DNA of 64,000 bases from Bacillota bacterium (GCA_023430885.1 JAEYYH010000026.1:19599-83598); one strand, 5' to 3'. Counted from the stretch's first letter, positions 1 through 57,042 are shown. Program-made: numbers and translations. The notes: generated from the letters alone by a model not told the origin.

Positions 1-2
1 AA

Positions 3-1382
3 TTGCAAGTTAAAAATTATTTGGAAGCAATGGAAATGCAAGCTTTGCCATTGAGATTTGAACAAGAAAAAGTATTAAAATCAATGCTTCCAATTTACCC
101 AAAACAAGATATAGAAGATAGAATAGGTACCCCAATTCCTGCACCTACTTTAGCAGCTATGTATCCATTCATTTTTGATAGCATCAAAGATCCAGGACTA
201 GCATGTTTATTAGGTGTTGATTTCTCTGGTGGTGTTATATTATTTAATCAATTTTTATATCAAGAGAAAAAAGAAAATAATCGTAATAATGCTAACATGA
301 TTATATTAGGTACTTCTGGTAGTGGTAAATCAACTGCTGCTAAATTATTGCTTAGAACTAATATTCGTAACGATCATCAAATTATTGTTATAGATCCTGA
401 AGGTGAACTTGAGGAAATGACAAAAAGATACAATGGTGACTTTATTGACTTAGGTAAGGGTGGAGATTATGGTATGATTAATCCACTTGAAGTAATAGTC
501 GATGCTGATGAAGAAGAAATAGCTTCAGGTTTAGGATATACTGTACTTACTAGAACTATACAAACTGTAAAAGCATTTTTAAAATATTATGATCCTTCTA
601 TTGGAGAAGATGTTGTAAATATATTTAGTGAAGTTTTACAAGAAACATATAGAAGATTTAACATTAGTTTTGAATCAGATTTCACTAAATTTACATCTAA
701 AGATTTTCCAACTATAAAAGATGTTTATGCTACAGTACGTGGAAAAATACTTTCTATGCCTGAAAAAACACAAGAACGTGATATTTTGGAAAGATTGGAA
801 ATTAAATTAAGACCACTAGTAAAAGAATTGAAGTATTATTTTGATGGACATACTACGATTTCTTCAAAAAGTAATTTTATAGTGTTTAATATCAAAGAAT
901 TAATGAATACGGATGCAAATATCAGAAATGCTTTATTCTTTAATGTATTAAAATATGCTTGGGGATTAGCTTTGGATAAAAGTAGAAATACTATTTTGAT
1001 GGTTGATGAAGCACACGTATTAATGGCAGGAAATAATACATTGGGTGCAGATTTCTTAGCGCAGGTTCAAAGACGTGCTAGAAAATACAATACAGGTACT
1101 ATAATAATTACACAGCAACCAACAGATTTCTGTGATCCTGCTGTAATAGTACAAGGAAAAGCAATTTTCGACAATGCTGCTTATTATTTAGTTATGGGAC
1201 TTAAGAAACAAGCTGCAGACGATTTATCATTATTAATAGATTTAAATGATAATGAAAGAGAAAGTATAAAACATTATAGCCAAGGAGAAGCTTTATTTGT
1301 TTGTGGAAGCAGAAGAATGCGTATTAACGTAATAGCTACTGAACAAGAAATAGATTCATTTGGCGGTGGCGGCGGCCTATAA
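3..1382 (+). CDS. VirB4/TrsE-family conjugative transfer ATPase, C-terminal ATPase domain (5' end truncated by window start)
   Basis: Walker A ILGTSGSGKST, IVIDPEGE, Walker B ILMVDEAH, then ITQQP motif. The ORF is open to the window edge. Confidence 0.75.
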   Translation: MQVKNYLEAMEMQALPLRFEQEKVLKSMLPIYPKQDIEDRIGTPIPAPTLAAMYPFIFDSIKDPGLACLLGVDFSGGVILFNQFLYQEKKENNRNNANMIILGTSGSGKSTAAKLLLRTNIRNDHQIIVIDPEGELEEMTKRYNGDFIDLGKGGDYGMINPLEVIVDADEEEIASGLGYTVLTRTIQTVKAFLKYYDPSIGEDVVNIFSEVLQETYRRFNISFESDFTKFTSKDFPTIKDVYATVRGKILSMPEKTQERDILERLEIKLRPLVKELKYYFDGHTTISSKSNFIVFNIKELMNTDANIRNALFFNVLKYAWGLALDKSRNTILMVDEAHVLMAGNNTLGADFLAQVQRRARKYNTGTIIITQQPTDFCDPAVIVQGKAIFDNAAYYLVMGLKKQAADDLSLLIDLNDNERESIKHYSQGEALFVCGSRRMRINVIATEQEIDSFGGGGGL

Positions 1383-1407
1383 AATTTAATATAAAATTTA
1401 CTAGACT

Positions 1408-4400
1408 TTGGTGGTGATGGTTATGGATGAAAATAATAATGTGAATGAAAATAGTGGCGTTGATAAAAAAGCACTAGAAAAGCAACATACAGAGCAAAAT
1501 ACAAAAAAAGCTCTTCAAGTTGCAGAAAAAGGTGCCGCTACTTATTTTGCTGGTCCAGAAGGAGCAGCTGCAGTTAATGCACTCCATAATGCACCCGTTG
1601 TTGGTAAAGCTTTAAATAAAGTAGAAGACAAGGCTGTTGAAAAATTAGGAAAAAATAAAAATATTGCCAATCTTGCAAATAAATTAGGTGATAGTGGTGT
1701 TACAGATGCTGCTGATAAAGGTTTAGATGCAGTTGGCGCAGCTGGAGGCGGTGGTGCTGCTGCCGGTGCCAGTGGTGCTGCAAAGGCAGGTGGAGCAACG
1801 GCAGGAGCAAGTTCTTCTGCTACTTCAGCTGCAAAGGGGATAAATGATGGTCTAGGAAAATTACCAGCCGGTTTAAATGGTTCTGGTGGTTCAAATAGCC
1901 CAAATGGTCCTGGCGGTGGTTTTGGTGGTGGAGATGACGAACTTTCTCCATCTCAGCGAACTGTACAAGCAGTCAAAAAAACAGGTAAAATATTAAAAAT
2001 GATATCACCAGCTCTTCCATTTATTGGAGGAGCAATTGTTACAATATTAGTAGTTGTAATGGTTATGGCTGAAATCATGGTTATAAGAGATAAAATTGTT
2101 GGAGTAATCAATGAAGTTTTAAAGACGGAGCAGAGACTTACCAATTTTGTTACTGGAGATGGTTGGAGAACTGAAGATGAGGCTTTTTTCTACAAGTTAA
2201 AGGTAGCATATAACGATTTTAAATCAACTACTAATTCAGATAAGCCATTAGATATACCATTAATAGCTGCAACCATTCATTATTCAAAAGTTACAGATAT
2301 GAATAACTGGGATGGTGCTGAAGGTGAACACGAAGATGACATTGGTAAAAATGAAGATAATTACTCAGATTCTGAGGATACTGGTATAGGTTCATCTATA
2401 GTTGAAACATATAAGACGTGGAGTTTTTACCAAATGGCTAATGTAAAACTTGGTAACTACACTTTAACACCAGGGCAAAGAGGACTTCTTGGTCATTTGG
2501 TTCATACCGAAATAGAATGGCATAAAATTTGTATTTTAGATGCACCTGCAAAATGGGCAGAATTTTTTTCGGATCTTTTTGGTTTCAAGTCATTACAAGA
2601 AAATCTTGAATTAAATGATGGTAAAGTAGGATCAGCGTTGCTTGACGAAATAAGTCAATTTCTTCAACTTTCACCTATTGGAATGATAACAGGTTTTGCA
2701 GATTTGTTTAAAGATATTCAGGCTTTTGCTGATCAAGATTCCAGTGCTTTAGAATGGTGGTCTGCAAACTTTGTCTACGAAGCAAGAGAGTTCATTGAAT
2801 ATTTATCTGGAAACTTTAATGATGAAAGGTTAGTTAACACGCCATATTCATATTACAACAATTTAGAAGGAAGTGGAACTAAGGTAGATGGTACAAGTGT
2901 TGGGAAACCAGCTCAAAGTGTATATGATGAGTCTCAGAATTATTCCTCAGCTTCCACTGGTAAAACTACAGATGATGATGGTACATGTATACTTAATTTT
3001 CCATATCCTAAAGTTGTTAGAAGTATGGATTACAAGGGATACTATCGTTATTTAGTAAATGTATATATTCCATTAACATATTATAGAGGTTTAGAAGTAG
3101 ATAAAGATTATTCTTTTCTTGAAGTTGTTCAAACAGCTAATGCTATCTTTGATCAGAAGTATTTATATGAATATTTAGTTGGCGAAGATACTCAAAATTT
3201 AGCCAGTGGTTGTGATTATAACTTTTCTGGTTCGTCCTCCACGACAGTTAGTGTAGATAAAAATATGATTGACAATCTATATGTTAATGTAATGTCCGGT
3301 AGTTGTGGTAGTGTAAAAAATTGTACGAATATCGAAGAAACAGTATCTCTAAAAGATTATGTTATAGGTGTAGTTTATCGTGAAATTGGAGCTTCTATAA
3401 AAGATAATGCAGAATATTTAAAAGCAAATATTATTGCTGCAAAAAGTTTTACAGTCGGAAGAAGAACCGCTTCACAAAGTGGAGACAAGTATTACATAAA
3501 TATGATAAATAGTACAAACGATCAAGTATATTGCAGTGTAACAAAAGGTTGTATGGAAGCATCTAGTAATAAGAAACCAGCTCCATCTGCTGAACTTCTT
3601 GAGTATTTAGGTAAACTTTATGATGAAGTTTATAATGATTTCCTTTACAATTCATCAAGTAGTTCATTTACAGGTTACTATAGAGCAAAAGAATCGCAAT
3701 GTATTGGATCAGATATAGCGGGTGCTTGCCTAGGTCAAAATGAAAGCCAAGAAATGGGAGATGCTGGTAAAAAATATGAAGCTATTTTGGGATATTTTTA
3801 TGTAGATCCTATAGGAATGGTGGATATTTCTACCGGAAACTTCAGTGTTGGTGTAATGCAGTGTATATCATCAGGTCTTAAATTAGGAACAGACGGTTAC
3901 TATATGCGTACTACTAAGCCAGACCCAACCAATATTTACTTTAATCCTCCTTATGTATCTAATTCTAATAGAGGTCAATGTGTATGGTATGTAAAAGGAA
4001 GAGCACAAGAAATAATTGCCAATTCTATAGCAGATGCATCAAAAAAAGAAACCGCAAAAAATGCAATACAAGCTACAAATGGTAATGGAAATCAGTGGTT
4101 TACTGAAGAATTGCAAAAAGTATTTGGCAGTAGTACTGATTACAGACTTCCAAAAGTTGGATCAATAGCTGTTTACACATGGACAGACAGTCATTGTGCT
4201 CAATATTGGGGTGGAACTTGTAGAGAAAATTATGGACACTCCCTTATTGTTGAAGAAGTTAATGGAAATAATGTAACAACTTCTGAAGGTTATACAAAAT
4301 GTAGTACAGGAAGTCCAGGTTGGGAATGCCCTATATTCTTTAATGGACACTACACAATTGAGCAAATGAAAGATCTTGGCGGGAATTATAAATTTATTGG

Positions 4401-4422
4401 GTATATATATTTATTGGATTAA
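1408..4422 (+). CDS. Conjugation-associated cell-wall hydrolase: N-terminal Gly/Ala-rich low-complexity region, one TM segment, SpoIID/LytB-like domain and C-terminal CHAP domain. Likely true start is ATG 1423 after RBS GGTGGTGAT
   Basis: TM segment ISPALPFIGGAIVTILVVVMVMAEIMVI. SpoIID-like stretch LKDYVIGVVYREIGASIKDNAEYLKANIIAAKSFTV. CHAP Cys in GQCVWYVKGRAQE and His in GHSLIVEEV. Position between VirB4 and T4CP is typical of Gram-positive conjugation hydrolases. Confidence 0.7.
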   Translation: MVVMVMDENNNVNENSGVDKKALEKQHTEQNTKKALQVAEKGAATYFAGPEGAAAVNALHNAPVVGKALNKVEDKAVEKLGKNKNIANLANKLGDSGVTDAADKGLDAVGAAGGGGAAAGASGAAKAGGATAGASSSATSAAKGINDGLGKLPAGLNGSGGSNSPNGPGGGFGGGDDELSPSQRTVQAVKKTGKILKMISPALPFIGGAIVTILVVVMVMAEIMVIRDKIVGVINEVLKTEQRLTNFVTGDGWRTEDEAFFYKLKVAYNDFKSTTNSDKPLDIPLIAATIHYSKVTDMNNWDGAEGEHEDDIGKNEDNYSDSEDTGIGSSIVETYKTWSFYQMANVKLGNYTLTPGQRGLLGHLVHTEIEWHKICILDAPAKWAEFFSDLFGFKSLQENLELNDGKVGSALLDEISQFLQLSPIGMITGFADLFKDIQAFADQDSSALEWWSANFVYEAREFIEYLSGNFNDERLVNTPYSYYNNLEGSGTKVDGTSVGKPAQSVYDESQNYSSASTGKTTDDDGTCILNFPYPKVVRSMDYKGYYRYLVNVYIPLTYYRGLEVDKDYSFLEVVQTANAIFDQKYLYEYLVGEDTQNLASGCDYNFSGSSSTTVSVDKNMIDNLYVNVMSGSCGSVKNCTNIEETVSLKDYVIGVVYREIGASIKDNAEYLKANIIAAKSFTVGRRTASQSGDKYYINMINSTNDQVYCSVTKGCMEASSNKKPAPSAELLEYLGKLYDEVYNDFLYNSSSSSFTGYYRAKESQCIGSDIAGACLGQNESQEMGDAGKKYEAILGYFYVDPIGMVDISTGNFSVGVMQCISSGLKLGTDGYYMRTTKPDPTNIYFNPPYVSNSNRGQCVWYVKGRAQEIIANSIADASKKETAKNAIQATNGNGNQWFTEELQKVFGSSTDYRLPKVGSIAVYTWTDSHCAQYWGGTCRENYGHSLIVEEVNGNNVTTSEGYTKCSTGSPGWECPIFFNGHYTIEQMKDLGGNYKFIGYIYLLD

Positions 4423-4432
4423 GGAGGATATA

Positions 4433-5098
4433 ATGAATAAAAAGATATTAGTATTATTATTAATAACATTTATATTTTTCTTAACTGGTTGCGATGCCAA
4501 ATATGAGATGGAAATAAAAAACAATAAAATAACTGAAAATATTTCTGTCTCTATACCTAGTAAATATACAGAAAAGGAAATTAATGAAAATATTGATTAT
4601 TTTGGCATAAATTCTGATTCTGCTTATAATCAAAAAATTGAAAAAAAAGATAATGAGAGTATTATTTCACTTAGTGGAAAAAAATCAAAGATTGATGATT
4701 TTTTTAATAATAGTGATAGTTTTGTAAATAAATGTTATAATAAGGTTAGTTTTGTACTAGAGGATGGCAAATATTATATAGGGACATCAAAAGGATTTAA
4801 ATGTTTAACTTATGAATACATGGAATTAGATAGTCTTACTATAAACATTAAAACTTATCATAAAGTGTATGATAATAATGCTGACAAGGTAAGTAACAAT
4901 GTGTATACGTGGATTATTAATAAAAACAATATTTCAACAAACAACATTTTATTTGTTGTAAGCAAGAATGAATATGTTTGGTATTATAGATATAGATATT
5001 TATTTGGCGGAATAGTAGCAGTATCTGTTATATTCTTAGTTACTTACATAGTTATTTCTATATTCAGAACAACTAGTAAGCGAGCAAATAAAATTTAG
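4433..5098 (+). CDS. Lipoprotein with C-terminal TM anchor (T4SS-associated, function unknown). The ORF track starts at 4376, but RBS AAGGAGGA favours ATG 4433
   Basis: MNKKILVLLLITFIFFLTGC lipobox LTGC. C-terminal hydrophobic segment LFGGIVAVSVIFLVTYIVISIF. Confidence 0.5.
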   Translation: MNKKILVLLLITFIFFLTGCDAKYEMEIKNNKITENISVSIPSKYTEKEINENIDYFGINSDSAYNQKIEKKDNESIISLSGKKSKIDDFFNNSDSFVNKCYNKVSFVLEDGKYYIGTSKGFKCLTYEYMELDSLTINIKTYHKVYDNNADKVSNNVYTWIINKNNISTNNILFVVSKNEYVWYYRYRYLFGGIVAVSVIFLVTYIVISIFRTTSKRANKI

Positions 5099-5109
5099 GA
5101 GGTAAATAG

Positions 5110-7929
5110 ATGAAATTGAAATTCAGAGCAGATTCAAAAGACATAGTTATATTTGTAATATTTTGTGTAATATTACTTTATCTATGTGCTATAGCAGTAT
5201 TAAATTTATCAGAATTTTCAAAATACGGAACATTTTTTGGATTAAATCCATTTCCGGCTTTTACTTCTGAATATGTATTCCCAACTTTAGTAATATTTGT
5301 TTTTGCTTTAGTAGCCATTATTATGAGTGTCTCTTCTTATTTCTTTGATAGAGAAAAAGGAATAGGCATTAGCACTGATGCTAAAAAAGAAAAAGGTTAT
5401 TCAAGATGGTGTACTGATAAGGAAATGAAAAAAGAACTAAAACCTGTATTAGCAATGTCTGAGACAAGTGAATTTGCTGGTATACCAATAATGAATGACG
5501 GTAAAAAAATATGGGTTGATGATGGAGAATTTCATACTTTAGTTATTGGTTCTACTGGTGCAGGTAAAACTGAGATGACTATTCAACCTATGGTCAAAGT
5601 GCTTGCTAAAAAAGGCGAATCTATGATTATAACCGATCCAAAAGGTGAGATATATGAAAAGAATGCCTTGGAGTTAAAAGAAAAAGGATACAATATAGTT
5701 TTATTAAACTTTCGTAATCCTCAAAATGGTAATTGTTGGAATCCTCTAACTTTACCATATCAATTATACTGTGATAAAAATCAAGATAAAGCTTGCGAAT
5801 TGTTAGAGGATTTAGCTTTGAATATTCTATACGATGAATCATCAAAAGGGCAAGATCCATTCTGGGAAAAAACTTCCGCAGATTATTTTGCGGGTTTATC
5901 TTTAGCGTTATTTGAAGATGCTAAAGCAGAAGAAATTAACTTAAATAGTATTAATTTGATGACTACTGCTGGAGAAGATAAAATAGGTAACACTACATAT
6001 ATAAAAGAATATTTTAGTGATAAAGATCAGGGTTCTCCTGCATACATAAATGTAGCAAGTACATTAATGGCTCCAAATGAAACAAAGAGCAGTATTTTAT
6101 CTGTATTTAAACAAAAGATTAAACTATTTTCATCTCGTGAAAATCTATCTGAGATGTTATCTCATAGTGATTTTGACATGCATGATATTGGACGTAAAAA
6201 AACAGCTGTATTTATTGTAATACAAGATGAAAAGAAAACTTATCATTCACTTGTAACTATATTCTTAAAACAATGCTACGAAACGCTTATTAGTGTTGCG
6301 CAAGAATGTGGTGGGCATTTGCCATATAGAACAAACTTTATATTAGATGAGTTTGCTAATATGCCCCCCCTTAAAGATGTAACTACAATGGTAACTGCAG
6401 CTCGTAGTCGCCATATAAAATTTACATTTGTAATTCAAAACTTTGCACAACTTTATGAGGTATATGGCAAAGAAAATGGTGAAACAATAAAGGGTAACTG
6501 TGGTAATATAATTTATTTAATAAGTAGTGAGTTATCTGCTTTGGAAGAAATAAGTAAACTTTGTGGTGAAGTCAAATCAAAGGAAAAAGATAAGACGGAT
6601 TCTAGGCCACTTGTTACAGTTAGTGACTTGCAAAGATTGCCACAATGGACTTTAATAGCTATACGTATTCGTATGATGCCTTTTAAAACCAAACTTACTC
6701 CAAACTGGCAAATGGTTAAAGATAATAGTTGGGGTAGAAATTATGATCTAGCAACATATCCAGTTAGAGAAAAAGGCATAGTTCAAACATTTAATATAAA
6801 GCAGTTTGTTGATAAGAAAAAGGAAGAAAAAGTTACAAATATGCTTAATAATATAACTGGAGGTTCATCTAAGCCAGTTGATACAGGATTCAATCCTTTT
6901 GCTAGCCAAAAACCTACTAATGCTCCGCTTGCTTCGAAGAACGCAGGTGGATTTGATGTAGATGAAATGGTTCGTAGAATTGATGCAAAGATTGCTGAAC
7001 TTGAAGAAGAAGAAAGACAAGAAAAAGCAAAATTAGCCGAAAAAAATGCTGGCAATGCCAATCTGATTTCTAAGGATGATGTCACAATACCTATAGAAGA
7101 AAATAAATTAACTACATCACAAATTTCTTCAATTATACCTACAAGTGTTAAAGAAGAAAAATCTGAAACAGAAATAGATGAATCACCTGATTTTAATTTT
7201 AATATTCCAAAAACAGATGGAGAAAATTTAGATTTATCATTTAACAAACAAATTTTTCCATCTAGTGATTCAGTTGAATATAAAGATAATTCAAAATTAG
7301 ATTCAACACAAAATAAAAATGTGTTATTAGATTCATTAGCATCAGAAGATGATGCAAACGATGATAATGATAGTGGTAGATTCTTTGGTTTACCAGTTGT
7401 TGAAAATTCTTCAGCAAATAAAAATTCAGAGAACTTAGATGAGGAAGAACCAAAAGATGAAACTACTCAAAAAGAAAATAATAATAGCAGTCAATTTTTC
7501 GACTTCATTGTTCCTGTAGAAACTAAGAATGAAAAGCTAGAACCAAAACAGGAAGAAAATAATGTTGATATTAATATACAAGAAGAAAAAATTCCGGAAG
7601 GTATTATTAATGACATATTACCTGTATCTACTGTTCCTAAACAGGAATTAACACCAATTGATTCTTTACCAGAGGATTCATATATAGAAAAACCTGTGGA
7701 AGAAGATGTTGATATTCCAGCTTCTACAGAAGTGAAATTTATTCAACCAGTTATTGAAACCGCTCCATTAAAGCAAGAACAAAATGTTCCGACAAATGAA
7801 ATTAAAAATGAGACAGATAATAAAAAGACAATTGAAAAAAATATTGATAAATTAGATACAAAAGTGATTAATAATAATTATGTAACTGATGATCAATTCT
7901 TCGATGATTTCTTTAATGACGAAGAATAA
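5110..7929 (+). CDS. Type IV secretion coupling protein (VirD4/TraG/TcpA-like) with a ~380-aa acidic low-complexity C-terminal tail
   Basis: N-terminal TM helices. Walker A LVIGSTGAGKTEMT, IITDPKGE, Walker B FILDEFANMPP. C-terminal half is D/E/N/K/S-rich with no recognisable domain. Confidence 0.75.
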   Translation: MKLKFRADSKDIVIFVIFCVILLYLCAIAVLNLSEFSKYGTFFGLNPFPAFTSEYVFPTLVIFVFALVAIIMSVSSYFFDREKGIGISTDAKKEKGYSRWCTDKEMKKELKPVLAMSETSEFAGIPIMNDGKKIWVDDGEFHTLVIGSTGAGKTEMTIQPMVKVLAKKGESMIITDPKGEIYEKNALELKEKGYNIVLLNFRNPQNGNCWNPLTLPYQLYCDKNQDKACELLEDLALNILYDESSKGQDPFWEKTSADYFAGLSLALFEDAKAEEINLNSINLMTTAGEDKIGNTTYIKEYFSDKDQGSPAYINVASTLMAPNETKSSILSVFKQKIKLFSSRENLSEMLSHSDFDMHDIGRKKTAVFIVIQDEKKTYHSLVTIFLKQCYETLISVAQECGGHLPYRTNFILDEFANMPPLKDVTTMVTAARSRHIKFTFVIQNFAQLYEVYGKENGETIKGNCGNIIYLISSELSALEEISKLCGEVKSKEKDKTDSRPLVTVSDLQRLPQWTLIAIRIRMMPFKTKLTPNWQMVKDNSWGRNYDLATYPVREKGIVQTFNIKQFVDKKKEEKVTNMLNNITGGSSKPVDTGFNPFASQKPTNAPLASKNAGGFDVDEMVRRIDAKIAELEEEERQEKAKLAEKNAGNANLISKDDVTIPIEENKLTTSQISSIIPTSVKEEKSETEIDESPDFNFNIPKTDGENLDLSFNKQIFPSSDSVEYKDNSKLDSTQNKNVLLDSLASEDDANDDNDSGRFFGLPVVENSSANKNSENLDEEEPKDETTQKENNNSSQFFDFIVPVETKNEKLEPKQEENNVDINIQEEKIPEGIINDILPVSTVPKQELTPIDSLPEDSYIEKPVEEDVDIPASTEVKFIQPVIETAPLKQEQNVPTNEIKNETDNKKTIEKNIDKLDTKVINNNYVTDDQFFDDFFNDEE

Positions 7930-7931
7930 TT

Positions 7932-7984
7932 AAAAAAACCACTTATTAATATAATGCAAACATATTATATTATAGGTGGTTTTT
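7932..7984. terminator. Long imperfect hairpin (outer stem AAAAACCAC/GTGGTTTTT, loop CAAAC) flanked by A-run and T-run; bidirectional terminator candidate and possible element boundary
   Basis: Inverted repeat read directly from the sequence, immediately after the T4CP stop codon. Confidence 0.4.
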
Positions 7985-8269
7985 ATGTTAATAAATATAA
8001 GTGTTAGCGAGTTAAAAAAATTAATTGGGTCTATTAATATAATAGATATAAGAATTAAAGACGACTATGATAATGGACATATAAAAACGAGTATTAATAT
8101 TCCAAATAGTCAATTATTATGTAATTATAAACAATATTTAGACAAAACAAAAAAATATTATATATATTGTCAGTATGGAAAGACCAGTGTAAAAACATGT
8201 GCTTTCTTGAATAAATTAGGTTATGATGTTGTGAATATATCAGGTGGTTTTGATGAATTTTTTAAATAA
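7976..8269 (+). CDS. Single-domain rhodanese-like sulfurtransferase
   Basis: IIDIRIKDDYDNGHIKTSINIP and active-site loop YCQYGKTS. About 95 aa. Confidence 0.6.
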   Translation: MVFMLINISVSELKKLIGSINIIDIRIKDDYDNGHIKTSINIPNSQLLCNYKQYLDKTKKYYIYCQYGKTSVKTCAFLNKLGYDVVNISGGFDEFFK

Positions 8270-8408
8270 TGTATTATGATTATTGTAGAATTATTTTTTA
8301 ATAGTGTTTAATTAAATGTGTACAAACTATTGGTTTACAAAAAACAACAGAAATTTATAAATTAAGAAAAGAAAAGTATAATCTTACGATTTTTTCACAT
8401 AAATATAT

Positions 8409-8437
8409 TGAATTTTATGGTAAAATATAACAAGGAG
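8409..8437 (+). promoter_or_regulatory. Sigma-A-type promoter candidate for gpmI (TTGAAT ... TGgTAAAAT extended -10)
   Basis: Motifs read in sequence about 10-35 nt upstream of the gpmI RBS AAGGAGATGG. Confidence 0.35.
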
Positions 8438-8444
8438 ATGGTAA

Positions 8445-9944
8445 ATGATGAAACCTATAGTATTGTGCATCTTAGATGGTGTGGGAATAAGAAAAGAAGA
8501 ACATGGAAATGCTTTTGCGCAAGCAGCAAAGCCAAATTTTGATTTTTTATGGAATAAATATCCACATAGTTTACTTGAAGCAAGTGGAGAATTAGTTGGA
8601 CTTCCTCATGGACAAATGGGTAATAGTGAGGTAGGACACATGAATATTGGAGCTGGAAGAATAGTATATCAGCCACTTCAATTAATAAATGAAAAAATAA
8701 AAAATGGTGATTTTTTTGATAATAAAGAATATATAGATGTAATGGACTATGTTAACGAAAGAGACTCGAAGTTACATATTTTTGGATTACTTAGTGATGG
8801 TGGAATACACTCACATATTAATCATTTATTTGCTATACTTGATATGGCTAAAAAAAATGGGATCAAAAAATTATATCTACATATGTTTTTAGATGGTAGA
8901 GATACTCTTCCAGATGTAGCAGAAACATACTTAGATAAACTTGCCAAAAAAATAGATGAAATTGATTTAGGAGTTATTGCAACTATATCAGGAAGATATT
9001 ATGCAATGGATAGAGATAATAGGTGGGATAGAGTTAGTTTAGCATATAATGCCATTGCTAATGCTGATGGTATCGAATACGATAATTATCACGATGCAAT
9101 AAAAGATAGCTATGCAAATAAAATTTATGATGAATTTGTTTTGCCTACTGTTCTTGATAAAAATGGAACAGTGGAAGAAAATGATGGAATGATTTTGTTT
9201 AATTATAGACCAGATAGAGGTAGAGAATTATTTAGTGCTTTCACTAATCCAAAATTTACTGGATTTGAGAGAAAATTTATTAAAAATTTGAAACTAGTTA
9301 CAATGATGCCACTTAGCAATGAAGTAATTAATACAACGGCATTTGATAATCAAAATTTAACAAACACTTTGGGGGAGTACTTGTCAGATAATAATAAAAA
9401 ACAATTAAGAATAGCTGAAACAGAAAAATATGCTCATGTAACATATTTCTTTGATGGAGGATTAGAAAAAGAATTATCTGGATGTGATAGAATTTTAATT
9501 CCATCACCAAAAGTTGCTACATATGATTTAGCCCCTGAAATGAGTGCTGTTCAAATAACAGACAAGTTAATTGAAGTAATTGATAATTATGATGTTGTTA
9601 TAGTTAATTATGCAAATGGTGATATGGTTGGTCATACAGGGGTAATACCTGCTGCCATCACAGCCATTGAGTGTGTAGATGAATGTTTGGGAAGATTATA
9701 CAAAAAGGTGGATGAGATTGGCGGAACTTTATTAGTAACTGCTGATCATGGTAATTGCGATTGGATGCTGGATGATAACAATAATGTTATAACAAGTCAT
9801 TCAACTAGTTTAGTGCCTTTTATTATTAATAGGGATGTGGAATTAAAAGATGGTAAACTTGCTGATATTGCACCAACTATTTTAAAGATTTTGGATCTTG
9901 AAATTCCAGAAGAGATGACAGGAAGTATTCTTATTAAGAATTGA
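8445..9944 (+). CDS. gpmI: 2,3-bisphosphoglycerate-independent phosphoglycerate mutase
   Basis: ILDGVGIR, GNSEVGHMNIGAGR, ADHGN motifs. About 500 aa, typical iPGM. Confidence 0.9.
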   Translation: MMKPIVLCILDGVGIRKEEHGNAFAQAAKPNFDFLWNKYPHSLLEASGELVGLPHGQMGNSEVGHMNIGAGRIVYQPLQLINEKIKNGDFFDNKEYIDVMDYVNERDSKLHIFGLLSDGGIHSHINHLFAILDMAKKNGIKKLYLHMFLDGRDTLPDVAETYLDKLAKKIDEIDLGVIATISGRYYAMDRDNRWDRVSLAYNAIANADGIEYDNYHDAIKDSYANKIYDEFVLPTVLDKNGTVEENDGMILFNYRPDRGRELFSAFTNPKFTGFERKFIKNLKLVTMMPLSNEVINTTAFDNQNLTNTLGEYLSDNNKKQLRIAETEKYAHVTYFFDGGLEKELSGCDRILIPSPKVATYDLAPEMSAVQITDKLIEVIDNYDVVIVNYANGDMVGHTGVIPAAITAIECVDECLGRLYKKVDEIGGTLLVTADHGNCDWMLDDNNNVITSHSTSLVPFIINRDVELKDGKLADIAPTILKILDLEIPEEMTGSILIKN

Positions 9945-9955
9945 GGAACTTAGTA

Positions 9956-11311
9956 ATGAAAGAAAAGAAAAAAACAAAAATAAAATTTAAGAAAATAAAT
10001 ATATTTATTGCTTTAAATATATTATTTTTGCTTGGATGTTGTGTATTTTACGGATCTAGATTAATTTATTATTATAAAGTTGAACACCCAAAAGTAAAAG
10101 CTAACGAAGATTTAGTAGATTTAGTAACGCTTAAAAAAAATATAACTACAGTAGGCTCTGGTTTATACAAAACTGATGACGGTTATGTATATAAGGGTGA
10201 TAAAGTAGCAAATTATGTGCAGTATTCAGGCAGATTATGGCGTGTTATATCAGTAGATAAAGATAATAATATAAAATTAATTACGGATGCTTCACAAACA
10301 TCACTGGTATGGGGAATCTCTACAGATTATAAAAATTCTTATGTTAGATCATGGTTAAATGATGAGAGTAATAATATTAAATCATTTTATGAAAGTTTAG
10401 CAGACACAAGTAACCTCGTAAAAACTAAAACTTGTATTGATGAAATTTCAGAAAATAGTATTACTTGTGACGATTATGTAGAAGATAATATAGGACTATT
10501 ATCTGCATATGAATATCAGCTTGCAGGTGGTGAAGATAGTTATTTAAACATTGAACAATATTGGTGGACTAGTAATATAAATGATAATGAAACTGCTTGG
10601 TATGTGTATTCTAAGGGAAGCTTAAATGACACATCATATTCAGGGACTATGTATTATAGCTATGGTGTAAGGCCAACAATAACTATTAAAGGAACATCAG
10701 AAGTTAAAAGTGGTGATGGTAGTAGTGAAAACCCATATAATTTGGATATTTCAACAACAAACATACTAAATAAAAAATATGTTGGTAACTATATAAATTA
10801 TAGTGATTATACATGGCGTATAATAGAAACAGATGATAACTATGTAAAAGTTGTTATGGATGGTGTTGTTAAGAAAGATAACAAGGATTATTATACATCT
10901 TTTGGAACAACAAATTATTATTCAGTAGATTCAAAAGTTGGTAATTATCTAAACAAAAACTTTTATAATAGTTTGGATAATAAAGAGTATATTTTAAAAT
11001 CCGACTTTTATGCTGGTAGATATGATTATTCAAATAAATATGATTTTAATAGTATAACTGAATATAATGAAACATTAAAAGTGGGCTTATTACAATTAGG
11101 GGAATTGTTCGTTACAGATGTTTCAAAATATTTCTTATCAACAAGAACCAAAACAACTGATAATAATATTTATCAAGTATTAGAAGATGGTCGAATATAT
11201 GCTGGTGATTTAACAGATGAGTTAATGCTAAGGCCAACTATATATTTAAAACCAGACTTAGCAATAAATTCAGGTAATGGTACACAGAAAGATCCATATA
11301 TAGTTGGGTAG
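9956..11311 (+). CDS. Membrane-anchored extracellular protein with two internally repeated ~200-aa halves (function unknown). Start ATG 9956 after RBS GAGGAAC; the track's 9941 start overlaps the gpmI stop
   Basis: N-terminal TM INIFIALNILFLLGCCVFYG. Repeats G.KVANYVQYSGRLWRVI / KKYVGNYINYSDYTWRII. Each half ends NPY.L / DPYIV. Confidence 0.45.
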   Translation: MKEKKKTKIKFKKINIFIALNILFLLGCCVFYGSRLIYYYKVEHPKVKANEDLVDLVTLKKNITTVGSGLYKTDDGYVYKGDKVANYVQYSGRLWRVISVDKDNNIKLITDASQTSLVWGISTDYKNSYVRSWLNDESNNIKSFYESLADTSNLVKTKTCIDEISENSITCDDYVEDNIGLLSAYEYQLAGGEDSYLNIEQYWWTSNINDNETAWYVYSKGSLNDTSYSGTMYYSYGVRPTITIKGTSEVKSGDGSSENPYNLDISTTNILNKKYVGNYINYSDYTWRIIETDDNYVKVVMDGVVKKDNKDYYTSFGTTNYYSVDSKVGNYLNKNFYNSLDNKEYILKSDFYAGRYDYSNKYDFNSITEYNETLKVGLLQLGELFVTDVSKYFLSTRTKTTDNNIYQVLEDGRIYAGDLTDELMLRPTIYLKPDLAINSGNGTQKDPYIVG

Positions 11312-20266: not shown

Positions 20267-22081
20267 ATGTTTAAAAAAGAAAAAAGAATTAAAGATACAA
20301 AAGAAAAGAAGATAAATATTAATATAATTCTTGCGATTATATTAGTTTTGTCTTCTTTAATGTTATCTGGATTAGTTATATATGCTAACATATTTCCAAT
20401 AAAGTATTTAGCTCCAGCAATAATTATCTTGATAATTATGGTTGGTATAATTGTGTTTAAATTATTATCTAAAAAGACAAGAAAAAAAAGAAAAAACGTC
20501 CTTTATATATTATCTATATTGTTAAGTGTTATTTTTTTTATTGCTAGTTTTTTTGTAGCAAAAACAAAAATACTTTTAAATAGCAGTAATATTGATTATA
20601 AAACGCATAATTATTCTGTCATAGTATTAAATGATAGTAAATACTCAAATTTAAATGATTTGGAAAATGCAAGTATGGGCTATTTTGACAATGGTGCTGA
20701 AGGACTGAACGAGTCAATAAAAAAAATAGAAGATCAAATTGATGTTAGTATGGTTCCATATACTAATTTAGAAGAATTAGGTTATGCAGTATTATCAGGA
20801 GAAGTTGATTCTATAATTGTAGAGGATTCTTATAAAAGTATTCTAGATAATGAAGAAGATAATAGTGATAGATTGGAAAATTTTAAATCTCTAACTAAGA
20901 CAATATATAATTTTAGTATAAAAATTAAACAGGAAGATATAAGCAAGGATGTTGATGTAACAGATAAAACATTTGCAATATACATAAGTGGAATAGATAC
21001 ATATGGTGATATATCTTCTGTTTCATGTAGTGATGTAAATATGTTGCTTGTTGTTAATCCAAAAACTCATCAAATACTTATGGTTTCTATACCAAGAGAT
21101 TACTATGTTCAATTACATGGAACAACCGGTAATAAAGATAAATTAACACATGCTGGCAGTTACGGAATAGAAATGTCTATTCAAACTATTGAAGATTTAC
21201 TTGATATGAATATTAATTATTATGTTAAAGTTAATTTTACAAGTTTAATTGATATAGTGGATGCTTTAGGTGGCGTTGAAGTTTATTCAGAATATACATT
21301 TACTTCAATAGAAGGCTATAGTTATACAGCAGGATACAATAGTGTTGATGGAATACAAGCATTATGGTTTGCTAGAGAAAGAAAAGCTTTCTTAGATGGC
21401 GATAGACAAAGAGGAAGAAATCAACAAGCACTCATTGATGCTATATTTAGAAAAGCGACAAGTAAATCAGTTATAACAAAATATAATAGTTTACTAAATG
21501 GAATAAAGGGTAGTTTTGTTACTAATATGAGTGTAGACAGAATAACCGCATTAATAAAAATGCAGTTATCTGATAATGCAAAATGGACTATTACTTCAAC
21601 AAGTTTAGATGGTACAGATAGTTCTAATTACACTTATACATATAGCAACCAATTACTCTATGTTATGGAACCTAATATGGATAGTGTGGAAGCAGCTAAA
21701 TCAATGATAAATCAGGTTTACAATGGTGAAAAGTTAACAGCTTCTTATGAAGATACTAGTAGTGATGTTCATGATGTACAAAAGTATGATCCTATATATT
21801 ATCCAGAAGAAAATACTACTCCGGAAGAAAAACCAGTGATTACAACATATACAGTTAATTTTGATAGTACTGGTGGTAGCAGTGTAGCTAATCAAACTAT
21901 TGAAGAAGGTAAGATTGTGGTAGAGCCTATAGATCCAATCAAAGACGGATATACTTTCTTTGGTTGGTATGATGAAGCAGGAAAATTATATGATTTTACT
22001 AGTACAGTTTCGAAAAATATGACATTAACAGCCCAGTGGGAAGTAGCAGTAATAGAAGAAGAGCCTGTTACAACTCCTTAG
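20267..22081 (+). CDS. LytR-CpsA-Psr (LCP) family cell-wall glycopolymer transferase with a C-terminal Listeria-Bacteroides repeat domain
   Basis: LCP core HAGSYGIEMSIQTIEDLLDMNINYYVKVNFTSLIDIVDALGGVEV. C-terminal YTVNFDSTGGS...DGYTFFGWYDEAGKLYDF...TLTAQW repeat. Confidence 0.8.
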   Translation: MFKKEKRIKDTKEKKININIILAIILVLSSLMLSGLVIYANIFPIKYLAPAIIILIIMVGIIVFKLLSKKTRKKRKNVLYILSILLSVIFFIASFFVAKTKILLNSSNIDYKTHNYSVIVLNDSKYSNLNDLENASMGYFDNGAEGLNESIKKIEDQIDVSMVPYTNLEELGYAVLSGEVDSIIVEDSYKSILDNEEDNSDRLENFKSLTKTIYNFSIKIKQEDISKDVDVTDKTFAIYISGIDTYGDISSVSCSDVNMLLVVNPKTHQILMVSIPRDYYVQLHGTTGNKDKLTHAGSYGIEMSIQTIEDLLDMNINYYVKVNFTSLIDIVDALGGVEVYSEYTFTSIEGYSYTAGYNSVDGIQALWFARERKAFLDGDRQRGRNQQALIDAIFRKATSKSVITKYNSLLNGIKGSFVTNMSVDRITALIKMQLSDNAKWTITSTSLDGTDSSNYTYTYSNQLLYVMEPNMDSVEAAKSMINQVYNGEKLTASYEDTSSDVHDVQKYDPIYYPEENTTPEEKPVITTYTVNFDSTGGSSVANQTIEEGKIVVEPIDPIKDGYTFFGWYDEAGKLYDFTSTVSKNMTLTAQWEVAVIEEEPVTTP

Positions 22082-23834: not shown

Positions 23835-25310
23835 ATGGATAAAAGTGATATTTTAAGAAGTATAACGCAAAGAACTAATGGAGATATATACTTAGGTGTT
23901 GTAGGTGCTGTAAGAACTGGTAAGAGCACTTTTATAAAAAAAGTTATAGAAAATCTTGTTGTTCCTAATATTCAAGATGAGTATGAAAGAAAAAGATGTT
24001 TAGATGAAATACCGCAAAGTGCTCAAGGCAAGACTATAATGACTACGGAGCCTAAGTTTGTGCCTAGTAATTCGGCCAATATTAATATTGACAATTTTAC
24101 GGCTAATATACGACTAGTTGATTGTGTAGGGTATGTTATTCCGAGTGCTAAAGGTTATGAAGATGAGAACGGTCCAAGAATGGTTAAAACACCATGGTAT
24201 GATGAACAAATTCCTTTTGTAGAAGCTGCAGAAATAGGAACAGAAAAAGTCATAAAAGATCATTCTACCATTGGGATTGTTGTTACGACAGATGGTTCAA
24301 TTGGTGAAATATCTAGAGATAATTATGTAGAAGCAGAAACAAGAGTTATAAATGAATTAAAAGAATATGGTAAGCCTTTTATTGTTATACTTAATAGTGT
24401 TCATCCAATGCTTCCAGAAACAGAGAGAATAGCTGAAAGTTTAAAATTGTCTCATGATGTGCCAGTGCTTCCAATAAATATAGAGAACATGAGCGAAAGA
24501 GATATATATACTATATTAAAAGAAGCATTATATGAATTTCCAATTAACGAAGTAAAAGTAAGTATGCCAGATTGGATAGGATGCTTATCGCCAAGTAATT
24601 GGTTAAAGAAAATTTATATTGATAAAATTAGAGAAAGTGTTACAAGTGTAAACAAATTAAAAGATGTTGACACAATAAATGGTCATTTTACAGATTGTGA
24701 ATATATTAGTAGGTCTTATTTATCTGAAGTTAATTCATCAAATGGAGAAGTAACTATAAATTTAGAAGCCCCAGATGAATTATATTCTAAAGTACTTAAT
24801 GAAATAATACCAGTTAATATAAATAGTAAAATGCAAATGTTAAAATTATTTCAAGATTATAACGAAACAAAGATTGAATTTGAGCAGTTCAAGTCAGCTT
24901 TGAAAATGGTTAAACAAACAGGTTATGGAGTAGCATCACCAACACTTCTTGATATGAAATTAGATAAACCAGAAATAGTAAAACAAGGAAATAGATACGG
25001 CATAAAATTAAAAGCTGTAGCACCAGCTATTCACATGATTAGAGTTGATGTTGAAAGTACTTTTGAACCTATAATTGGATCAGAATTACAGAGTAAAGAA
25101 TTAATTAATTACTTGATGAAAGATTATGACACAAATCCTAATAATATCTGGAAAAGTGAACTATTTGGTAGAAGTTTAGATTCAATAGTAAAAGAAGGAA
25201 TACAAGCAAAACTTGCTTTAATGCCAGATAACATTAGATTTAAATTACAACAAACATTAACTAAATTAGTTAATAAAGGTTCAGGAAATTTATTTGCAAT
25301 TGTATTATAA
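23835..25310 (+). CDS. spoIVA: Stage IV sporulation protein A (spore coat basement-layer ATPase)
   Basis: N-terminus DIYLGVVGAVRTGKSTFIKK is near-identical to B. subtilis SpoIVA. About 491 aa. Confidence 0.9.
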   Translation: MDKSDILRSITQRTNGDIYLGVVGAVRTGKSTFIKKVIENLVVPNIQDEYERKRCLDEIPQSAQGKTIMTTEPKFVPSNSANINIDNFTANIRLVDCVGYVIPSAKGYEDENGPRMVKTPWYDEQIPFVEAAEIGTEKVIKDHSTIGIVVTTDGSIGEISRDNYVEAETRVINELKEYGKPFIVILNSVHPMLPETERIAESLKLSHDVPVLPINIENMSERDIYTILKEALYEFPINEVKVSMPDWIGCLSPSNWLKKIYIDKIRESVTSVNKLKDVDTINGHFTDCEYISRSYLSEVNSSNGEVTINLEAPDELYSKVLNEIIPVNINSKMQMLKLFQDYNETKIEFEQFKSALKMVKQTGYGVASPTLLDMKLDKPEIVKQGNRYGIKLKAVAPAIHMIRVDVESTFEPIIGSELQSKELINYLMKDYDTNPNNIWKSELFGRSLDSIVKEGIQAKLALMPDNIRFKLQQTLTKLVNKGSGNLFAIVL

Positions 25311-27439: not shown

Positions 27440-27712
27440 ACATAGGCGTTGAAGAAACGAGTAATAATAACAACTAATTTGAGCGAGTTAGATATGGTGG
27501 AAGCTAACAATTAAGTTTATTATGAAGAACAGTTCGGAGCTATCTATTTGAACTATAGTAGAATAGATCGGTTGTAATCCGTTACCAAGTTACATGAGAG
27601 ATTATATATTACTATACTTTGTATAATGATATTTAATAATGTGGGTGGTACCGCGGATACAACAGTAATTCGTCCCTTTGTGGAATTTTGAAGTACTGTT
27701 TTTTTATTCGAA
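27440..27712 (+). promoter_or_regulatory. T-box riboswitch leader 1 (putative Asn specifier AAC) with intrinsic terminator
   Basis: Canonical T-box sequence AATGTGGGTGGTACCGCGG at about 27641-27657. Terminator hairpin about 27664-27700 plus T7 run. Stem I region AGTAATAATAACAACTAATTTGAGCGAG contains AAC. Confidence 0.7.
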
Positions 27713-27716
27713 TTTG

Positions 27717-27792
27717 CCTGATTAGCTCAGTTGGTAGAGCATCCGGCTGTTAACCGGCAGGTCGTAGGTCCGAGTCCTACATCAGGCGCCAT
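27717..27792 (+). tRNA. tRNA-Asn (anticodon GUU) with encoded CCA; atypical T-loop UCCGAGU (C at position 55)
   Basis: Cloverleaf folded by hand. Acceptor GCCTGAT/ATCAGGC, D-arm GCTC-AGTTGGTA-GAGC, anticodon loop CTGTTAA, T-arm GTAGG-TCCGAGT-CCTAC, discriminator G, then CCA. Confidence 0.75.
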
Positions 27793-28043
27793 TTTTATTT
27801 TATAAGCGATGATTAAGAGAGTAATAATATGACTAGTAAAAGCGAGTTAGGTATGGTGGAAGCTAACAACCAATAGTATTATGAAAAACACTTATGAGCT
27901 ATTATTCTGAAATAAAGTAAGTTTAATCGGTTTAACCCGTTATCAAGTTAGAGTGACTATAGAATTATTTTATAGTAATTTGGGTGGTACCGCGGATACA
28001 ACAGTAATTCGTCCCTACAGGGATTGAATACTGTTTTTTTTAT
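27793..28043 (+). promoter_or_regulatory. T-box riboswitch leader 2 (putative Asp GAC specifier), near-duplicate of leader 1, directly upstream of gatC
   Basis: T-box sequence AATTTGGGTGGTACCGCGG at about 27980-27996. Terminator ACAGTAATTCGTCCCT/AGGGATTGAATACTGT plus T8. Stem I region AGTAATAATATGACTAGTAAAAGCGAG. Confidence 0.7.
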
Positions 28044-28065
28044 ACATTAAAGGAGGGATAATATT

Positions 28066-55407: not shown

Positions 55408-57042
55408 ATGATAAAATATACATTGGTGATGTTTATGAAGGGTAGTAATTTAAACTTATCTTTTGGACTAGAATTAATATATGAAAATGCTAACTTTCAA
55501 TTAAACGATTTTGATAAAGTTGGAGTAGTTGGTGTTAATGGTGCTGGTAAAACAACTTTATTTAAAGTAATATTAAAAACTCAAGATTTAGACAGTGGTA
55601 AAATAGACGTGATTAATAAAAGAATTGGATATCTTCCACAGGAAATAGTATTAGAAGATAAAGATATAACTGTTTTTGATTATATTATGACAGCAAGACC
55701 AATAGAAAAACTAGAACAAGAATTAACTAAATTATATAATGATGTTGCAGTAACAACTGGTAAAGAACAAGATAAGATAATGAATAAAATTTCTAAGACT
55801 CAAGGTTTATTAGAATACTATGATTATTATAATGCAGAAAATATTATGTTGGAATTAATTAGTAATATGAATATTGACTTTGATTTATTAGATATGAAAT
55901 TGTGTGATTTATCAGGTGGACAAAAGTCAAAAATAGCTTTTGCCCATCTTCTATATTCAAAACCAGAAATTCTTTTACTTGATGAACCTACTAATCACTT
56001 AGATGTAGGTACAAGAAAGTTTATAACTAATTATTTAAAAAATTATAAGGGTATGGTTTTAATAATAAGTCATGATATAGAATTCTTAAATGATATAGTT
56101 AATAAGACTTTGTATGTAGATAAAGCAGAAAAAAGTTTATCTGTATATAATGGTAACTATAGAGATTTTATGAAAAAGAGAACGGCTGAAAAGGAAGCTA
56201 AAGAAAAACTAATTGAAAAGCAAGAAAAAGAAATAGAAAAATTAAGAAGTACTGTTCTTTTATATAGTAACTCATCTGGTAATAGAAAAAAGATGGCTCA
56301 AAGTAGGGAAAAAGTTTTAGATAAAAAAATGGATGAATTACTAGTAAGAGATAAAACACTAAAAAAAGTAAGATTAAATATTAAACCGGATAGAGAAGGC
56401 TCTAAAATACCAGTTAAAATAAATAATATTACTTTTGGATATAATGAACATAAACTAATAAAAGATTTATCATTAAATATAACAAATAGAGAAAGATTTC
56501 TTATTGTAGGGGAAAATGGAGTAGGTAAGTCTACTTTATTAAAACTTATTGTAGGGAAACTAAAACCTGATAGTGGTTCAATATGGTATGGTAATAAAAC
56601 TGATATTGCATATTATGCTCAGGAATTAGAATTGCTTGATTTAGATAAAACTATAATTGCTAATGTTGATAATGATACTTATACTGAAAGAGAACTTCGT
56701 ACAGTATTAGGTAACTTTTTATTCTATGGTGAAGATGTATTTAAGAAAGCTCAGGTTTTATCACCTGGTGAAAAAGCAAGGGTAGCTTTATGTAAGATTC
56801 TTTTAAAGAAAGCTAATCTTCTTATTCTTGACGAACCAACAAACCATTTAGATCCAGAAACCCAACAAATAATAGGTGAGAACTTTAAAAACTATGAGGG
56901 TACTATTATTATGGTAAGTCATAATCCAGCTTTTACTTCTAACATTGGAATTAATAGAATTTTAATTCTTCCTAATGGAAAAATAACTAATTATTCAGAT
57001 GAAAAATTAGAATATTATTATAAACTAAATACTAAGGATTAA
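55408..57042 (+). CDS. ABC-F family ATPase (two ABC cassettes joined by a charged linker)
   Basis: Two Walker A (GVNGAGKTT, GENGVGKST), two signature LSGGQK/LSPGEK, linker EKEAKEKLIEKQEKEIEKLR. Confidence 0.85.
   Translation: MIKYTLVMFMKGSNLNLSFGLELIYENANFQLNDFDKVGVVGVNGAGKTTLFKVILKTQDLDSGKIDVINKRIGYLPQEIVLEDKDITVFDYIMTARPIEKLEQELTKLYNDVAVTTGKEQDKIMNKISKTQGLLEYYDYYNAENIMLELISNMNIDFDLLDMKLCDLSGGQKSKIAFAHLLYSKPEILLLDEPTNHLDVGTRKFITNYLKNYKGMVLIISHDIEFLNDIVNKTLYVDKAEKSLSVYNGNYRDFMKKRTAEKEAKEKLIEKQEKEIEKLRSTVLLYSNSSGNRKKMAQSREKVLDKKMDELLVRDKTLKKVRLNIKPDREGSKIPVKINNITFGYNEHKLIKDLSLNITNRERFLIVGENGVGKSTLLKLIVGKLKPDSGSIWYGNKTDIAYYAQELELLDLDKTIIANVDNDTYTERELRTVLGNFLFYGEDVFKKAQVLSPGEKARVALCKILLKKANLLILDEPTNHLDPETQQIIGENFKNYEGTIIMVSHNPAFTSNIGINRILILPNGKITNYSDEKLEYYYKLNTKD

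Follow-up and report, generated by a model that had tools for sequence, protein, structure and literature searches.

Gene Organization of the Locus

Analysis of a 64,000-nucleotide (nt) stretch of DNA from a Bacillota bacterium (GCA_023430885.1 JAEYYH010000026.1:19599-83598; hereafter the window) demonstrated that it begins with genes of a type IV secretion system (T4SS). The features of this cluster lie at positions 1-8269, which are very probably the 3' end of a vertically inherited chromosomal cluster of approximately 30 kb that is fixed in RF39, a group of uncultured Bacilli with reduced genomes. Four transfer open reading frames (ORFs), encoding a VirB4-type ATPase, a cell wall hydrolase, a lipoprotein, and a VirD4-type coupling protein, are all located on the plus strand and are separated by gaps of 40, 10, and 11 nt (Table 1). 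An earlier note on this DNA had named the same four products, followed by a rhodanese and gpmI, and the domain matches, the lipobox, and the spacing agree with that reading.

Table 1. Positions of the cluster features and of related features in the window (aa, amino acids; TM, transmembrane; MFE, minimum free energy).
Feature	Position	Strand	Evidence or remark
VirB4-type ATPase, C-terminal 459 aa	3..1382	+	Pfam and NCBIfam; open at window edge
T4SS-associated cell wall hydrolase, 999 aa	1423..4422	+	Pfam SpoIID and CHAP
Lipoprotein, 221 aa	4433..5098	+	Lipobox LTGC and C-terminal TM helix; LppM-like fold
VirD4-type coupling protein, 939 aa	5110..7929	+	Pfam T4SS-DNA_transf, TrwB_AAD_bind, TraG-D_C; NCBIfam CD1115
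VirD4 C-terminal peptide VTDDQFFDDFFNDEE	7882..7926	+	Nearly invariant across species
Hairpin and U run	7934..7982	+	22-bp stem with one bulge; MFE -19.9 kcal/mol
Single-domain rhodanese, 94 aa	7985..8269	+	Pfam PF00581; active-site loop CQYGKTS
Spacer; synteny break relative to most relatives; gpmI promoter region	8270..8444	.	Right-flank comparison
gpmI	8445..9944		TIGR01307, 681 bits
Orphan T4SS pilin paralogue, 156 aa	25383..25853	+	BLASTP E 1e-18 to 1e-28 against the cluster pilin array

The exact 999-aa hydrolase is recorded on contigs of public assemblies. One of the sequences carrying it is metagenome scaffold L001 (93.6 kb), which matches the window at 100% identity for 14 kb and supplied 8.6 kb of upstream sequence. 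In L001, the complete virB4 gene (8176-9960) encodes 594 aa, and its start lies 403 nt before the window begins. The best NCBIfam match of VirB4 was NF045975, the model for VirB4 of mycoplasma integrative and conjugative elements (ICEs; E 2e-83), and CD1110, AAA_10, and P-loop_TraG were also matched. VirB4 is split in this locus: the 594-aa ORF corresponds to positions 295-892 of NF045975, and a separate 181-aa ORF, the N-domain, corresponds to positions 98-276.

The hydrolase begins with a Gly/Ala-rich region and a TM segment, followed by a middle region without a domain match, a SpoIID domain (PF08486, residues 641-714), and a CHAP domain (PF05257, residues 853-961). In other species, the same slot is filled by metallophosphatase, C39-like, M23, or GH25 proteins. 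Three marks of a monoderm conjugation-type (MPF_FATA-like) T4SS are present: a VirB4 ATPase, a VirD4 coupling protein, and a dedicated peptidoglycan hydrolase directly after VirB4. The Cys of the lipobox was invariant in 77 homologues of the lipoprotein. This protein was considered as the missing VirB8-like subunit and was rejected on the basis of its LppM-like fold.

VirD4 Coupling Protein and Its C-Terminal Peptide

VirD4 matched T4SS-DNA_transf (PF02534) with an E value of 1e-57 and the CD1115 family (NF045973) with 290 bits, above the cutoff of 250, and its match in the PDB was TrwB, a distant one. The protein is composed of two N-terminal TM helices, an ATPase body (residues 1 to approximately 630) with intact motifs for Walker A (GSTGAGKT) and Walker B (FILDEF), and an acidic low-complexity linker. 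This linker is hypervariable, ranging from approximately 30 to 300 aa with a sequence that differs by species, and yet in about 68 of 70 species this disordered tail closes with (V/I)(T/S)DDQFFDDFF. Such a pattern is typical of short docking motifs, and the end peptide is probably a docking site for a partner. The tail of F TraD, which binds TraM in relaxosome docking, offers an analogy for the acidic tail of VirD4.

Upstream Cluster: A Tad-Like Pilus Joined to a T4SS

The earlier note had expected the element to continue upstream, and L001 bears this out with genes for the VirB4 N-domain, VirB3-like, VirB6-like, T4SS pilin, and Tad-like pilus proteins. From the window edge outward, L001 encodes the 181-aa N-domain, a 104-aa PrgI/VirB3-like protein, a 700-aa polytopic protein, a 121-aa two-helix protein, a 320-aa protein (p320), two 143-aa proteins, an 86-aa pilin-like protein, and membrane proteins of 268 and 300 aa. 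A T2SSE/CpaF-type ATPase is also encoded upstream; Pfam assigns it to T2SSE, and the records of relatives call it CpaF. In relatives, the cluster extends further to the left with CpaB/RcpC, a DUF5411 protein, a secreted Cys-rich protein of 860-1077 aa, an approximately 215-aa protein, and an approximately 525-aa membrane protein. This left end was observed in three other species (L083-L087 and L091), not in the genome of the window.

The 121-aa family is a T4SS pilin, as 47 of its 72 members matched PF18895. The 700-aa protein is VirB6-like: it matched Mbov_0396/MMCAP2_0566 below the cutoff, and TrbL_4 was weakly matched in one relative. The PrgI match was weak with a single sequence (E 0.007) and reached 5.6e-6 when the family profile was compared with PrgI of Bacillus thuringiensis plasmid pBMB67. 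RcpC of relatives scored 31.5 bits (cutoff, 28.8), with a TIGR03177 E value of 4e-11. Of the components of a Tad (Flp, type IVc) pilus, the CpaF/TadA ATPase and CpaB/RcpC are found. The 300- and 268-aa proteins (TadB/C-like) matched only their pBMB67 counterparts (E 7e-13 and 7e-14), and the 143-aa protein (TadE-like) matched DUF4320 (E 1e-4). No Pfam T2SSF or Flp match was obtained among the upstream proteins of L001. A TadZ/ParA-like identity was suspected for p320; its profile matched nothing in the PDB, and its sole Pfam match was CbiA (E 0.022). As judged from these matches, the cluster as a whole, approximately 30 kb, is consistent with a monoderm T4SS to which a Tad-like pilus module is joined.

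A T4SS pilin paralogue was also found 17 kb away from the cluster, where it adjoins spoIVA (23835-25310).

Right Junction

The hairpin that the earlier note had seen at the junction is real (z = -5.55), and none of 200 shuffled sequences folded as well. It starts 5 nt past the VirD4 stop codon and runs into UUUUU at 7980-7984, so that a stable stem-loop with a U run stands directly after a stop codon, as in an intrinsic terminator. A simple consensus terminator scan did not list the hairpin, probably due to the bulge and the AU-rich stem, and it was found by folding. In some species, an additional canonical terminator lies upstream. The 3' arm contains the Shine-Dalgarno sequence of the rhodanese gene (AGGTGG) and a -10-like box, and the order CATATAAT-N5-AGGGTGGTTA-ATG is conserved upstream of this gene (window 7955-7990; spacers of L003-L082). 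The Shine-Dalgarno sequence was paired in the MFE fold of 29 of 40 related spacers. The hairpin matched no Rfam family, and its sequence is not repeated elsewhere in L001.

These features suggest that the hairpin is the intrinsic terminator of the T4SS operon rather than an attachment (att) site. On read-through RNA, it may mask the ribosome-binding site of the rhodanese gene, whereas the 5' arm would be missing from RNA that starts at the rhodanese promoter. With a gap of only about 5 nt between the -10-like box and the Shine-Dalgarno sequence, either a very short leader or a role at the RNA level is implied.

The rhodanese gene directly follows virD4 in 53 loci, whatever genes come next. The conserved block therefore ends after 8269, not at approximately 7930, where the earlier note had placed the end of the module. 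In most species, rmuC-DUF2238-rnr (RNase R)-smpB come next; in the clade of the window, whose lipoproteins are 66-75% identical and whose contigs reach 959 kb, the order is gpmI-DUF6273-NAGPA-polC. An extra gene of 451 aa lies between the rhodanese gene and gpmI in L089.

Distribution of the Cluster

To obtain relatives, one genome per GTDB species was searched with VirB4, and the best 80 loci were used; this sampling takes in VirB4 carriers and not cluster-free genomes. Further metagenome contigs (L083-L092) were added, and gene order was compared by all-versus-all ORF clustering of the loci. The cluster was colinear in these best 80 species representatives and in the metagenome contigs. Variation was confined to how many pilin paralogues there are (1-7), to the hydrolases and lipoproteins, and to sporadic inserts. 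VirB4 was 77-86% identical to that of the best 80 representatives. Among 1.84 billion representatives clustered at 50% identity, a single full-length VirB4 cluster was found (72% to the query), with the next clusters at 44-45% and the following ones at 38% or less. The nearest labeled VirB4 relatives outside RF39 were from a Solobacterium metagenome-assembled genome and a "Mycoplasmatota bacterium" plasmid.

The titles of most records read uncultured Bacilli, Tenericutes, or Mollicutes. The assignment to RF39 comes from L031, titled "Acholeplasma sp. CAG:878," as GTDB places the genus CAG-878 in this order (PMC8035907). RF39 is uncultured and ranks among the most prevalent such orders in the guts of humans and animals, with strongly reduced, auxotrophic genomes (PMC6784871), and its members are predicted to be walled and spore-forming (PMC10868615). 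In agreement with this prediction, the window also encodes SpoIVA, D-Ala-D-Ala ligase (57032-58063), and a LytR-Cps2A-Psr protein (20267-22081), which indicates that the organism is walled and keeps sporulation genes. Eight records (L012, L025, L030, L037-L039, L042, and L051) bear the titles Muribaculaceae, Vescimonas coprocola, or Clostridium sp. They match the RF39-type locus at 77-81%, and their titles are therefore probably binning or naming errors.

The genes flanking the cluster are housekeeping genes, including those for RmuC, RNase R, SmpB, Lon, Obg, RpoA, and PGK. The left flank depends on the species and consists of truA with an ECF transporter, CmpB with a lipase, or DFP with HAD. 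In L043 (OZ007038.1, 1,538,818 bp), the single complete circular chromosome of the set, the locus occupies 105943-127724, within the first 8% of the record. Nearness to the replication origin has been noted for the T4SS of Patescibacteria (PMC12102498).

Several variations of the cluster were observed. DUF6273 proteins lie inside the pilin array in approximately 20 species (including L008, L009, and L014), and in the clade of the window a DUF6273 gene (9956-11311) stands just outside the cluster, after gpmI; a role as a surface protein associated with the cluster is possible for DUF6273. An insertion hot spot separates the TadC-like gene from the small pilin gene (L083-L085, 12974-15454; L091, 12928-21146; L055, L056, and L057), where some species carry YfhO and another has an ABC transporter with a glycosyltransferase block. 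Rpn-like PDDEXK_2 "transposase" genes (family c25) occur at varied cluster sites in L016, L033, L034, L047, and L076.

Inheritance and Selection

The divergence of VirB4 follows that of housekeeping proteins encoded at the flank. In Mantel tests, VirB4 correlated with RmuC (r = 0.72, n = 45, p = 0.001) and with RNase R (r = 0.82). As RmuC and RNase R gave r = 0.86, the housekeeping pair correlate with each other about as well as they do with VirB4. The mean pairwise identity was 81% for VirB4, 72% for RmuC, and 67% for RNase R.

The ratio of nonsynonymous to synonymous substitutions (dN/dS) was computed against two congeneric contigs. The dS values of the cluster genes were similar to those of gpmI and NAGPA (0.5-1.4). 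The lowest dN/dS was that of VirB4 (0.012-0.017), followed by p320 (0.02-0.05), the housekeeping gene gpmI (0.06-0.085), VirD4 (0.12-0.14), the lipoprotein (0.15-0.16), the hydrolase (0.19-0.20), and the VirB6-like protein (0.34-0.36). The cluster genes are intact in the window and in relatives, with dN/dS of 0.012-0.36, and the parts that evolve fastest are surface-exposed (pilins, VirB6-like protein, hydrolases, and lipoproteins). These data fit long vertical descent under purifying selection and not recent acquisition or decay.

Search for Mobility Features

Genes for mobility were sought in the fetched loci and their flanks by means of gene tables, which do not extend to whole genomes. Across the cluster and both flanks of the relatives, the Pfam gene tables contained no tyrosine, serine, or DDE integrase or recombinase and no relaxase family, and a tblastn search with the MobP3 relaxase gave no match in the window or in 91 other fetched loci. 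Among 108 non-conserved proteins from flanks or inserts, no recombinase or relaxase family recurred; those that did were hydrolases, housekeeping proteins, and two Rpn-like PDDEXK_2 proteins, the latter being the sole recombination-related family that occurred repeatedly. No tRNA gene was present at the cluster flanks in eight loci. The earlier note had looked to an attL copy of the junction sequence upstream; no direct repeat involving 7930-7990 was found within L001. The G + C content is approximately 29% throughout the window, with no compositional break near 7930. Neither the patchy distribution nor the host-decoupled phylogeny expected of an ICE was seen among the best 80 VirB4 carriers.

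Comparison With Known Systems

The best plasmid matches were B. thuringiensis plasmids of the pBMB67 type, from the Bacillus cereus group, with VirB4 28.8% identical over 99% of its length. Plasmid pBMB67 (B. thuringiensis YBT-1520) has the same two-module layout of T4SS and Tad genes. Common to it and RF39 are VirD4 of the CD1115 family, a small TM protein, TrbL/VirB6, and PrgI/VirB3 in the one module, and in the other a large secreted protein, a small TM protein, SAF/CpaB, the T2SSE ATPase, two TadB/C-like proteins, a small pilin, and DUF4320 (TadE-like). The first module encodes a MobP3 relaxase, VirD4 (CD1115), a 126-aa protein, TrbL, PrgI, a 227-aa protein, and DUF87 (VirB4), and the second encodes 851- and 142-aa proteins, SAF, an AAA ATPase, a T2SSE ATPase, proteins of 305, 297, and 89 aa, and DUF4320. 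Nine components were detected by RF39 family profiles, and a separate VirB4 N-domain ORF accompanies a VirB4 of approximately 600 aa, as in the RF39 locus. The RF39 profiles of the 700-aa protein, p320, and the pilin did not detect TrbL, the AAA ATPase, or the 126-aa protein of pBMB67. The two loci also differ in several respects. The pBMB67 modules are plasmid-borne with the MobP3 relaxase immediately upstream of VirD4, whereas the RF39 cluster is chromosomal and lineage-fixed, has the Tad module first and VirD4 last, and showed no such relaxase. The long acidic tail and the invariant end motif belong to the RF39 VirD4; the end motif is absent from that of pBMB67. pBMB67 has been reviewed as a putative conjugative plasmid for which self-transfer was not demonstrated, and the tra region of the experimentally conjugative pAW63 contains VirB4, VirD4, and "VirB11," as described for pAW63/pXO2-like plasmids (PMC9673590). 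The RF39 cluster probably arose from the transfer module found on pBMB67 and similar Bacillus plasmids or has common ancestry with it.

Mycoplasma ICEs (Mbov_0396/0397) gave the best NCBIfam matches for VirB4 (350 bits at full length) and for the VirB6-like protein, and they share the order of pilin-like protein, TM protein, and VirB4. The RF39 scores fall below the equivalog cutoffs of these elements (350 + 56 against 590 for VirB4 and 44 against 70 for the VirB6-like protein), and VirB4 is fused in the mycoplasma elements, not split as in RF39. Mycoplasma ICEs are mobile and patchily distributed and carry a DDE recombinase, none of which was seen at the RF39 locus. With ICEs of Firmicutes (CD1110/CD1115 of Clostridioides difficile and the ICEBs1/Tn916 type), the cluster shares VirB4 followed by a wall hydrolase, a VirD4 above the CD1115 cutoff, and a monoderm architecture without VirB7, VirB9, and VirB10. 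The RF39 VirB4 scored 175 against CD1110, below the cutoff of 325. The cluster further differs from these ICEs in its vertical inheritance, in its added Tad-like pilus, and in that no integrase, relaxase, or att site was found.

The chromosomal T4SS of Patescibacteria (candidate phyla radiation) is derived from MPF_FATA, clade-wide, and mostly without a relaxase, and it is thought to have been co-opted (PMC12102498). It resembles the RF39 cluster in its arrays of VirB2-like or T4SS pilins (2-11 in Patescibacteria and 1-7 in RF39) and in its reduced, auxotrophic host genomes. Patescibacteria belong to another phylum, and the likeness is conceptual. The RF39 locus differs in being joined to a Tad-like pilus operon, and every species retains a wall hydrolase and VirD4. 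The rvh system of Rickettsiales is similar by concept only, as a conjugation-derived T4SS chromosomally fixed in a reduced-genome lineage and conserved across it (PMC2653234); it is a diderm P-type system scattered over several islands and is not homologous in detail. In the literature searched on RF39 and type IV secretion, pili, or conjugation, no account of the locus was found.

Origin and Possible Function of the Cluster

The earlier note had read the locus as either an ICE boundary (attR) or a decayed integrated plasmid, both of which run against the synteny, the co-divergence, the purifying selection, and the lack of detected mobility genes. It is very improbable that the window holds the attR side of an ICE whose integrase, relaxase, and attL lie further upstream and whose attachment site is the hairpin. 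Such an element would account for the conjugation-type genes with a VirD4 that passes the CD1115 cutoff, for the nearest annotated relatives being on conjugative plasmids, and for the species-dependent left flanks next to a left end that is unseen in the genome of the window. It is at odds with the colinearity of the cluster, rhodanese attached, in the best 80 species representatives, with divergence in step with the housekeeping flanks at a dS equal to that of neighboring core genes and at very low dN/dS, and with a junction that has no tRNA, repeat, or G + C break. Across the left end in three species, no integrase or relaxase matched Pfam, and MobP3 was absent; the 3' arm of the hairpin is itself the conserved Shine-Dalgarno/-10 region of the rhodanese gene, with equivalent hairpins in relatives. 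A plasmid or ICE remnant under loss is harder still to credit. When a T4SS locus has no relaxase next to it, it is often interpreted as a protein secretion system or as being in the course of degradation (PMC4027160), and the lack of a visible relaxase or recombinase would suit the latter, but all genes are intact in the window and in relatives, including the ATPase motifs of VirB4 and VirD4. The dN/dS values, the conservation of VirB4 beyond that of RmuC and RNase R, and the retention of the VirD4 end peptide across species also oppose decay. The earlier note had itself allowed for an ancient domesticated remnant conserved in all relatives; conservation in the sampled relatives holds, and the word remnant does not, as the genes look functional.

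The cluster is best read as a domesticated conjugation-type machine that has neither its own relaxase nor its own recombinase and is no longer like a mobile element. For its function, contact-dependent translocation of protein or nucleoprotein in the service of the host, as proposed for Patescibacteria, was ranked first because of the order-wide conservation, the constraint on VirB4 above that on glycolytic and RNA-decay enzymes, and the absence of a nearby relaxase, and we favor it tentatively, at somewhat under an even chance. In such a machine, the Tad-like pilus would make cell contact, and the SpoIID/CHAP enzyme would open the peptidoglycan. VirB6, VirB3, and VirB4 would form the channel together with the pilins, and a VirD4 hexamer would recruit the substrate through the invariant acidic-aromatic C-terminal peptide. 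It is less likely that the machine is instead a host-fixed conjugation apparatus that moves chromosomal DNA between RF39 cells with a relaxase encoded elsewhere or with none, in the manner of the chromosomal transfer that ICEs drive in mycoplasmas. The homology of VirB4 and the TM proteins to those of mycoplasma ICEs and to plasmid transfer modules, the retained DNA-transfer domain and TraG-D_C of VirD4, and an acidic tail reminiscent of the relaxosome-docking tail of F TraD speak for DNA exchange. In no locus was a relaxase found within 10-20 kb, however, and the constraint on VirB4 exceeds that on core metabolic genes, which is unusual for gene exchange. A more speculative proposal, which appears unlikely, is that RF39 depends on the machine and the Tad-like pilus for an obligatory, contact-dependent exchange with other cells, by delivery or acquisition of macromolecules, with the VirD4 tail TDDQFFDDFF as the site where a substrate or adaptor docks. 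If true, this dependence in genomes of approximately 1.5 Mb would parallel, within the Bacilli, that of epibiotic Patescibacteria on their essential T4SS.

Several points weigh against vertical descent of a domesticated machine. The variable left flanks and the two right-flank contexts indicate that some rearrangement or movement occurred, the dS values are near saturation, and the co-divergence of the flanks could in principle stem from co-transfer of large segments. The RF39-wide prevalence rests on the best 80 VirB4 carriers, and a relaxase or integrase may be present elsewhere in the genome of the window, where the left end lies outside the available sequence. Neither a prepilin peptidase nor a VirB8-like (NTF2-fold) subunit was found in the cluster. 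The assignments of TadB/C, TadE, the TadZ-like p320, the Flp-like pilin, and VirB3 are based on weak or plasmid-only profile matches, and the function and the substrate are both deduced from sequence.

A surface machine of approximately 30 kb that is present in every sampled species, with a highly constrained VirB4, is likely central to the lifestyle of RF39. It suggests a dependence on cell contact, which could guide co-culture of RF39 and explain failed axenic cultivation, and the VirD4 end peptide offers a concrete handle for a substrate search. Together with Patescibacteria, the cluster would make two independent cases in which a reduced-genome lineage fixed and repurposed a monoderm conjugation system. 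For annotation, a T4SS adjoining core genes in RF39-type genomes should not be called an ICE.

Other Features of the Window

Apart from the cluster, the window contains a tRNA-Asn(GTT) gene (27716-27791) between two full T-box leaders (27440-27680, 117 bits; 27800-28019, 131 bits). This block of T-box, tRNA-Asn, and T-box (27440-28065) is directly upstream of gatC-gatA-gatB and would be a T-box-controlled tRNA gene placed before the amidotransferase that makes Asn-tRNA.

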